Part shown: piece by piece, positions 34,910-38,389 of the stretch
Layout of the letters: each line of letters opens with the position of its first letter
Numbering within the stretch: position 1 is the first letter of the stretch
Virus record (IMG/VR): IMGVR_UViG_2526164598_000015
Direction: 5' to 3' (one strand)
From: a virus
Lineage: Duplodnaviria; Heunggongvirae; Uroviricota; Caudoviricetes
Length of the DNA stretch: 39,465 nt
Translations under genes and position numbers: made by a program
The notes under the pieces: generated by a model
Told to the model about the DNA's origin: nothing
The model's database searches: none
What the model saw: the letters and a program-made list of their open reading frames with translations, nothing else

Positions 34910-37900
34910 ATGGGTAAAGGAAGCAGTAAGGGGCATACCCCGCGCGAAGCGAAGGACAACCTGAAGTCCACGCAGCTGCTGAGTGTGATCGATGCCATCA
35001 GCGAAGGGCCGGTTGAAGGTCCGGTGGACGGATTAAAAAGCGTGCTGCTGAACAGTACGCCGGTGCTGGACAGTGAGGGGAATACCAATATATCCGGTGT
35101 CACGGTGGTGTTCCGGGCAGGTGAGCAGGAGCAGACACCGCCGGAGGGATTTGAATCCTCCGGATCCGAGACGGTGCTGGGTACGGAAGTGAAATACGAC
35201 ACGCCGATCACCCGGACCATCACGTCGGCAAACATTGACCGACTGCGTTTTACCTTCGGCGTGCAGGCACTGGTGGAAACCACCTCAAAGGGGGACAGGA
35301 ATCCGTCGGAAGTCCGCCTGCTGGTTCAGATCCAGCGTAATGGTGGCTGGGTGACGGAAAAAGACATCACCATTAAGGGCAAAACCACCTCGCAGTATCT
35401 GGCCTCGGTGGTGGTGGGTAACCTGCCGCCGCGCCCGTTCAATATACGGATGCGCAGGATGACGCCGGACAGCACCACAGACCAGCTGCAGAACAAAACG
35501 CTCTGGTCGTCATACACTGAAATCATCGATGTGAAACAGTGCTACCCGAACACGGCACTGGTCGGCGTGCAGGTGGACTCGGAACAGTTCGGCAGCCAGC
35601 AGGTGAGCCGTAATTATCATCTGCGCGGGCGTATTCTGCAGGTGCCGTCGAACTATAACCCGCAGACGCGGCAATACAGCGGTATCTGGGACGGGACGTT
35701 TAAACCGGCATACAGCAACAATATGGCATGGTGTCTGTGGGATATGCTGACCCATCCGCGCTACGGCATGGGGAAACGTCTTGGTGCGGCGGATGTGGAC
35801 AAATGGGCGCTGTATGTCATCGGCCAGTATTGCGACCAGTCGGTGCCGGACGGCTTTGGCGGCACGGAGCCGCGCATCGCCTGTAATGCGTACCTGACCA
35901 CACAGCGAAAGGCGTGGGATGTGCTCAGTGATTTCTGCTCGGCGATGCGCTGTATGCCGGTATGGAACGGGCAGACGCTGACGTTCGTGCAGGACCGACC
36001 GTCGGATAAGGTGTGGACCTATAACCGCAGTAATGTGGTGATGCCGGATGATGGCGCACCGTTCCGCTACAGCTTCAGTGCCCTGAAGGACCGTCATAAT
36101 GCCGTTGAAGTGAACTGGATTGACCCGGATAACGGCTGGGAGACGGCAACAGAGCTTGTGGAGGACTCGCAGGCCATTGCCCGTTACGGTCGTAACGTCA
36201 CGAAGATGGATGCCTTTGGCTGTACCAGCCGGGGGCAGGCACACCGAGCCGGGCTGTGGCTGATTAAAACGGAGCTGCTGGAAACGCAGACCGTGGACTT
36301 CAGCGTGGGTGCAGAAGGGCTTCGCCATGTACCGGGCGATGTCATTGAAATCTGTGATGATGACTATGCCGGTATCAGCATCGGCGGGCGCGTGCTGGCG
36401 GTGAACAGCCAGACGCGGACACTGACGCTCGACCGTGAAATCACGCTGCCATCCTCCGGCACCACGCTGATAAGCCTGGTTGACGGACAGGGGAATCCGG
36501 TCAGCGTGGAGGTCCAGTCCGTCACCGACGGCGTGAAGGTGAAAGTGAGCCGTGTTCCTGACGGCGTTGCCGAATACAGCGTGTGGGGGCTGAAGCTGCC
36601 GACGCTGCGCCAGCGCCTGTTCCGCTGCGTGAGTATCCGTGAGAACGATGGCGGCACGTATGCCATCACCGCCGTGCAGCATGTACCGGAAAAAGAAGCC
36701 ATCGTGGATAACGGGGCGCACTTTGACGGCGACCAGAGCGGCACGGTGAATGGTGTCACGCCGCCAGCGGTGCAGCACCTGACTGCCGAAGTCACCGCAG
36801 ACAGCGGGGAGTATCAGGTACTGGCCCGCTGGGACACGCCGAAGGTGGTGAAGGGCGTGAGCTTCCTGCTTCGCCTGACCGTGACAGCGGACGATGGCAG
36901 TGAGCGGCTGGTCAGCACGGCCCGGACGACGGAAACCACATACCGCTTCAGGCAGCTGGCGCTGGGGCGTTACATGTTGACGGTCCGGGCGGTAAATGCG
37001 TGGGGACAGCAGGGCGACCCGGCGTCGGTATCGTTCCGGATTGCCGCACCGGCAGCGCCGTCGCGGATTGAGCTGACGCCGGGCTATTTTCAGATAACCG
37101 CCACGCCGCATCTTGCCGTTTATGACCCGACGGTACAGTTTGAGTTCTGGTTTTCGGAAAAGCGGATTACCGATATCAGGAAGGTTGAAACCACAGCGCG
37201 CTATCTTGGCACGGGGCTGTACTGGATAGCCGCCAGTATCAATATCAAACCGGGCCATGATTATTATTTTTACGTTCGCAGTGTGAACACCGTTGGCAAA
37301 TCGGCATTCGTGGAGGCTGTTGGTCAGCCGAGTGATGATGCATCCGGTTATCTGGATTTTTTCAAAGGCGAGATAGGGAAAACCCATCTGGCTCAGGAGC
37401 TGTGGACGCAGATTGATAACGGTCAGCTTGCGCCTGACCTGGCTGAAATCAGGACGTCCATTAAGGATGTCAGCAATGAAATCACGCAGACCGTCAATAA
37501 GAAACTGGAAGACCAGAGTGCGGCAATTCAGCAGATACAGAAAGTTCAGGTTGATACAAATAATAACCTGAACAGCATGTGGGCTGTGAAGCTGCAACAG
37601 ATGAAGGACGGACGCCTTTATATTGCGGGTATCGGTGCCGGTATTGAGAATACGCCAGCAGGAATGCAGAGTCAGGTGCTGCTGGCGGTCAGACAGGATT
37701 GCGATGATTAATCCTGCGAATGGCAACACAAAGCCGATGTTTGTTGGTCAGGGCGATCAGATATTCATGAACGACGTGTTCCTGAAACGCCTGACGGCTC
37801 CGACCATTACCAGCGGCGGTAATCCTCCGGCATTTTCCCTGACACCGGACGGGCGGCTGACGGCGAAAAATGCCGATATCAGCGGTAACGTGAATGCGAA

Positions 37901-38389
37901 CTCCGGGACGCTCAACAACGTCACGATTAACGAGAACTGTCGGGTTCTGGGAAAACTGTCCGCCAACCAGATTGAAGGCGATCTCGTTAAAACAGTGGGC
38001 AAAGCTTTCCCCCGGGATCCCGTGCACCGGAGCGGTGGCCATCAGGGACCATTACCGTCAGGGTTTATGACGATCAGCCGTTTGACCGGCAAATTGTTAT
38101 TCCGGCGGTGGCATTCAGTGGCGCTAAGCATGAGAGAGAGCATACTGATATTTACTCCTCATGCCGTCTGATAGTGCGGAAAAACGGTGCTGAAATTTAT
38201 AACCGTACCGCGCTGGATAATACGCTGATTTACAGTGGCGTTATTGATATGCCTGCCGGTCACGGTCACATGACACTGGAGTTTTCGGTGTCAGCATGGC
38301 TGGTAAATAACTGGTATCCCACAGCAAGTATCAGCGATTTGCTGGTTGTGGTGATGAAGAAAGCCACTACAGGCATCACGATTAGCTGA
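34910..38389 (+). pseudogene. J: Tail tip / host specificity protein J, reading frame interrupted by two compensating frameshifts (frame A 34910-37711, frame B about 37690-38020, back to frame A about 38020-38389)
   Basis: N-terminal 930 aa near-identical to lambda J; frame A hits TAA at 37709-37711; the lambda-like continuation ([18 protein letters not shown]...AFPR) is in another frame, and the final segment ([21 protein letters not shown]...) returns to the first frame. Confidence 0.7.

Follow-up and report, generated by a model that had tools for sequence, protein, structure and literature searches.

Two single-base indels in the tail tip gene J of a lambdoid prophage in the Escherichia coli DEC13C draft genome, probably errors of the assembly consensus

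The J locus and its two indels

The window analysed here (the whole stretch of 39,465 nt) is the final 39.5 kb of the draft contig AIHH01000028.1 (74,489 nt) of Escherichia coli DEC13C (GCA_000250355.2). Near its right end lies the tail tip attachment or host specificity gene J, which opens at ATG 34910, encodes the canonical gpJ N-terminus and has genes K and I before it and lom and the side tail fibre gene after it, a synteny that fits gpJ. Its span of 3480 nt is the same as that of intact 1159-aa homologues. A gene of this family is expected to form a single open frame of about 1130–1165 codons; as deposited, J is divided into 933 codons, 109 codons in a shifted frame and 123 codons. The features of the locus are as follows.

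34910–38389, plus strand: tail tip attachment/host specificity gene J (gpJ family), 3480 nt in three reading-frame segments
34910–37711, plus strand: first J segment, a 933-aa ORF ending at TAA 37709–37711 (GenBank EHX66847.1, ECDEC13C_1380)
35990–39465, no strand assigned: stretch duplicated within the assembly, overlapping AIHH01000031.1 over 3,475 nt
37689, plus strand: extra T (+1), GCGG[T]CAGAC, not in a homopolymer (contig coordinate 72711)
37690–38017, plus strand: shifted J stretch of 328 nt (residues 927–1036), J-like in the alternate frame only
37704–38171, plus strand: 155-aa ORF of the gene caller (EHX66848.1), beginning at an internal Met of the shifted stretch
Between 38017 and 38018, plus strand: missing C (−1), not in a homopolymer
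38018–38389, plus strand: remainder of J with the C-terminal receptor-binding domain (Ig_GpJ_C), in the original frame again and unreachable as deposited
38457–39056, plus strand: lom (Ail/Lom outer-membrane protein)
39121–39465, plus strand: 5′ end of the side tail fibre gene (stf); 2 nt separate the end of the window from that of the contig

The indels were placed by base-level alignment against three intact or near-intact J genes. At the first site the other copies read GCGGCAGAC and the window reads GCGGTCAGAC; at the second, the others read GGGACTCCCG and the window GGGATCCCG, the missing C lying 4 nt past a C5 run (38009–38013). The shifted frame meets the TAA 20 nt past the insertion, and then more stops. 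The J-like sequence of the alternate frame ends in KAFPRD, after which the first frame resumes and runs to GITIS and the stop codon at 38389. The two compensating 1-nt frameshifts that a preliminary description had reported are thus present in the deposited sequence, as alignment to intact J genes confirms. The description had put the insertion near 37693, a few bases from the extra T, with the TAA at 37709–37711 given correctly; the shift back, put within 38016–38035 near the C5 run, was likewise located to within a few bases, and the roughly 110 alternate-frame codons are 109 in our count. The loss of the C changes GGGACTCCC to GGGATCCC, which makes a BamHI site (GGATCC) at 38015–38020. This is probably a coincidence; a cloning artefact was considered and set aside, as nothing ties the site to cloning in a shotgun assembly.

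When both indels are undone (T removed, C put back), J becomes an uninterrupted gene of 1159 aa that differs at 3 aa from WP_000515674.1 and at 8 aa from the copy of the sister strain DEC13D. The repaired protein matches the Pfam families FNIII-A_GpJ, Phage-tail_3, Ig_J, Ig_J_second, Phage_Tail_Tip and Ig_GpJ_C, all above gathering thresholds, and the three deposited fragments together carry the same gpJ families. By domains and synteny, J conforms to the lambda gpJ family and is nothing new in kind. Pfam assigns residues 872–1000 of the repaired protein to the tail-tip fibre domain and residues 1029–1159 to the receptor-binding domain, so that the shifted stretch covers the C-terminal half of the former and the first 8 residues of the latter. 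The lesions had been described as lying around the receptor-binding region; they are near it, but the stretch that they enclose falls just upstream of that domain.

Comparison with known systems leads to the same family. The C-terminal 294 residues of the repaired protein align end to end with residues 838–1131 of lambda J (PDB 8iyk, 8xcj and 8jvm; E = 7.6 × 10−102) and with gpJ of phage A8 (9wca; E = 8 × 10−124), and both share with it the architecture of a tip fibre followed by a C-terminal receptor-binding domain. Lambda J has 1132 aa, compared with 1159 aa here, and the receptor-binding domain sequences differ, so specificity for LamB should not be assumed. The gene for WP_000515674.1 (NZ_CP042336.1, 415983–419462) and the DEC13D copy resemble the window in their 3480 nt, in the order K, I, 112-aa ORF, J, lom and stf, and in the six Pfam domains. 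Features of the window alone, compared with these two, are the extra T at 37689, the C missing after 38017, a patch of mostly synonymous-position SNPs at 36058–36247 and a SNP at 37018.

None of the 6–14 relatives compared shares either indel: the extra T is absent from all 14 comparators at its site, and the C that follows 38017 is present in all 6 at the other. To place them in a wider context, we searched 5,426 complete E. coli genomes, a set that holds more than 5,000 copies of J. A 61-mer spanning the extra T found 5,779 matching places and a 62-mer spanning the missing C found 5,296, none of them exact, and the top matches all differ from the window by the one gap. The exact 31-mer with the T and the exact 32-mer with the C loss had no match in one genome per GTDB species or in IMG/VR. 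Neither indel was found in a related strain or in an independent assembly. The 933-aa fragment itself, in an exact look-up, returned a single record, the source contig AIHH01000028.1 (ECDEC13C_1380, EHX66847.1).

The contig-end repeat and the sister strains

The indels lie 1.45–1.78 kb from the end of the contig, which falls inside the side tail fibre gene. The Lom protein, looked up by exact match, is present on four contigs, the window's own included: two from DEC13C and one each from DEC13D and DEC13E, all with an identical protein. In Logan, the exact Lom look-up gave no contig for the DEC13 strains examined. The second DEC13C contig, AIHH01000031.1, begins inside J (at the equivalent of window position 35990) and runs on through lom, a 1035-aa tail fibre and beyond. 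It lacks both J indels and reads across both sites in a single frame, as a 270-aa ORF. Across the overlap the two contigs differ by 11 SNPs and 4 indel events (5 gapped positions), with 8 of the SNPs confined to 36058–36247, where the window reads A, A, A, G, G, C, T and A, and one more difference at 37018. AIHH01000031.1 has private changes of its own: an added G (G to GG) at 36473, a loss of TT (T6 to T4) at 37357–8, and single substitutions at 36501 and 37460.

Of the six SNPs in J that are private to the window, five are at third codon positions, and we therefore read them as natural polymorphisms that mark a distinct J allele. Individually, 36058A, 36109A, 36167T, 36247A and 37018C were unseen in 15 comparators, and 36148A is common to one. 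On this comparison, DEC13C holds at least two distinct lambdoid J–lom–stf regions, with the last 2.4–3.2 kb essentially identical. With near-identical 3′ parts of J, lom and 5′ ends of stf in two copies, the contig ends inside a two-copy repeat.

The sister strains offer a closer comparison. J is intact (1159 aa) in DEC13D (AIHI01000010.1), and the window is identical to its DNA from 37019 to the window end, the two indels excepted. Across 37277–39465 (2,189 nt) the window matches both DEC13D and DEC13E (AIHJ01000012.1) in everything but the two indels, with zero substitutions. In DEC13E, J is split into 550 and 614 aa by a private added T at 36490 (about position 3034 of AIHJ01000012.1), which falls on the boundary between one type of allele and another (GGACAG|TGGCAAT) and gives the appearance of a hybrid of the two. 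The DEC13D contig carries a private change of A4 to A3 just past the stop codon of gene K, within gene I. J is broken in three of the four copies in these sibling drafts, each time differently.

We also took a census of private indels over the 36.8 kb of the window for which at least 3 comparators were available at ≥95% identity. The terminase, 112-aa ORF and DUF6731 look-ups returned proteins too common to be specific, from unrelated genomes, and these were used only as comparators for the census. It yielded four items: the pair in J, a cluster in tail gene L at 32479–32506, an A7 run at 9745–9751 and an A8 run at 11541–11548. On the contig, the A7 run occupies 44,767–44,773. The A7 run interrupts a gene for a Q-like antiterminator (PF06530; 9586–10109), which is 174 aa long in six relatives and is split here into ORFs at 9574–9864 and 9753–10109. 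The same six relatives have A8 at this place, and one added A restores the protein. The short run would be one more sequencing error or else a second lesion of the prophage; a homopolymer-length change is as typical of the former as of prophage decay. The remaining head and tail genes of the window are all intact.

Two of the census items lie outside broken genes. The intergenic run at 11541–11548, just upstream of a minus-strand gene for a 304-aa protein, has the length A8 here, compared with A6 in six relatives. The patch in gene L holds three 1-nt insertions and three 1-nt deletions relative to the same gene in relatives, with a net change of zero; since the gene stays open, the patch looks like divergent or recombinant sequence and not like a set of frameshifts.

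Origin of the two indels

The preliminary description had offered three readings of the interrupted gene: sequencing errors, which we favour; an inactivated J, which is possible but less likely; and a C-terminal segment that is expressed differently, which the data do not support.

We consider it likely, from the comparisons above, that the two indels are consensus errors in a draft assembly, made in a two-copy repeat near a contig end, and are not mutations. Several observations favour this reading. The indels are private to one draft assembly and have no accompanying substitutions; the repeat lies near a contig end and the same assembly contains a conflicting version of it (AIHH01000031.1); the sister strains are otherwise identical across 37277–39465 yet have neither indel; private indels recur in the sibling drafts, and homopolymer anomalies are found elsewhere in the window; and reversal of both changes yields a gpJ with all six Pfam domains. 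We infer that the cause was an error in the reads or in the consensus. The true gene would then be an ordinary, intact 1159-aa gpJ. Both contigs that enter the repeat have private 1- or 2-base differences of their own there.

The mutational spectrum bears on this question. Spontaneous mutations in E. coli are substitutions about tenfold more often than indels, and the indels cluster in runs. Two indels outside runs, 328 nt apart, with zero substitutions in 2.2 kb, are therefore unlikely to have arisen naturally. The private changes in these drafts are dominated by indels, as is typical of flow-based sequencing, and the platform of the DEC collection may have been pyrosequencing. Some features weaken the case for error. 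Neither J indel is homopolymeric, unlike the other private indels, and the pair is thus not the most typical product of pyrosequencing. Because private indels are few over the 36.8 kb, two errors within 328 nt would need a local cause. Moreover, E. coli prophages commonly contain genuine J pseudogenes, that of VT1-Sakai being one example.

A consensus of mixed alleles, in which a second J allele with T for C would have led to an added or lost column when reads were merged, has no support at the two J sites, although it seems to fit the DEC13E frameshift at 36490. All 14 and all 6 comparators, respectively, and the second DEC13C copy have GCGGCAGAC and GGGACTCCCG, as does every top match in the closed genomes, where variant alleles would have matched the 61- and 62-mers.

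If errors they are, the tail-tip gene is intact and ordinary, and J gives no ground for scoring the prophage as defective. More generally, the frameshifted J genes in the 2012 DEC drafts (twice in DEC13C, once in DEC13E) need support from reads before they are taken as signs of prophage decay. The biological weight is small either way, and the practical point concerns annotation quality.

An unlikely alternative, although one to be taken seriously, is that the indels are real mutations private to the strain, that this copy of J is a pseudogene and that the prophage is left without an adsorption-competent tail tip. Translation would end at the TAA after 933 residues, so that the protein would lack its distal tip fibre and receptor-binding domain. 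The second indel would have followed later with no effect on function, or the two would belong to one clustered mutational event. The indels do stand in the deposited sequence, and the frameshifted Q-like antiterminator at 9586–10109 would fit a decaying prophage. The window J is also a distinct copy with its own SNPs at third codon positions, and could have its own history. There is precedent as well: J fragments are found in closed genomes, and the lambdoid J of VT1-Sakai (AP000400.1; BAB19563.1 and BAB19562.1) is likewise split in its deposited sequence and is annotated as a ‘truncated protein by a mutation’. The VT1-Sakai break, however, lies in the N-terminal third of J, and that copy has the intact bases at both sites of the window indels.

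Other results speak against a pseudogene. In the flanking 2.2 kb the window differs from the sister strains by two non-homopolymer indels and by no substitution; every other head or tail gene is intact; and neither change occurs in any closed genome. The different private J frameshifts in the other DEC13C contig and in DEC13E would require several independent inactivations of J by indels among a few related drafts. The opposite signs of the two indels rescue nothing, given that stops intervene, so selection does not explain their pairing. Were the mutations real, the locus would add one further private J pseudogene to the many already known.

It is very improbable that the indels are real and that the 933-residue J is nonetheless used, without its distal fibre and receptor-binding domain and perhaps accompanied by a 155-residue fragment from ATG 37704, whether in particles with a truncated tip or as an intermediate in the replacement of the receptor-binding module.

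Least credible of all is a functional interruption, in which the ribosome would shift by +1 near 37689–37709 and by −1 near 38017–38171, or J would be made as separate polypeptides: the net frame is restored, and the first ORF overlaps at its end with an in-frame ATG (37704) that is preceded, 5 nt before, by AGGA, but the same bases occur in all intact J genes, and the ORF from 37704 enters about 50 out-of-frame residues and never reaches the receptor-binding domain. Programmed frameshifts are conserved among homologues. Here the changes occur in 0 of more than 5,000 homologues, which are single-frame at both sites; the TAA comes 20 nt past the insertion, with further stops in the shifted frame; and inspection by eye revealed neither an X XXY YYZ heptamer nor a known +1 motif in the appropriate frame.

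Neighbouring genes

Between tail genes I and J, at 34505–34843, lies an ORF of 112 aa whose N-terminus resembles that of a lipoprotein (MNKTILFCTIIALTGCKS). It has no Pfam match, falls in phrog_914 (unknown function) and is extremely common beside 1159-aa J genes (6,742 indexed blocks). It may be a moron, for example one that encodes a surface or exclusion lipoprotein.

The minus strand at 10115–11524, within the late-regulation region, encodes the 304-aa protein mentioned above, a DUF6731 protein (phrog_7651), and a 159-aa protein (phrog_8552). Neither had a PADLOC match. Many prophages keep the two genes as a pair, which resembles a moron or an accessory cassette of unknown function.
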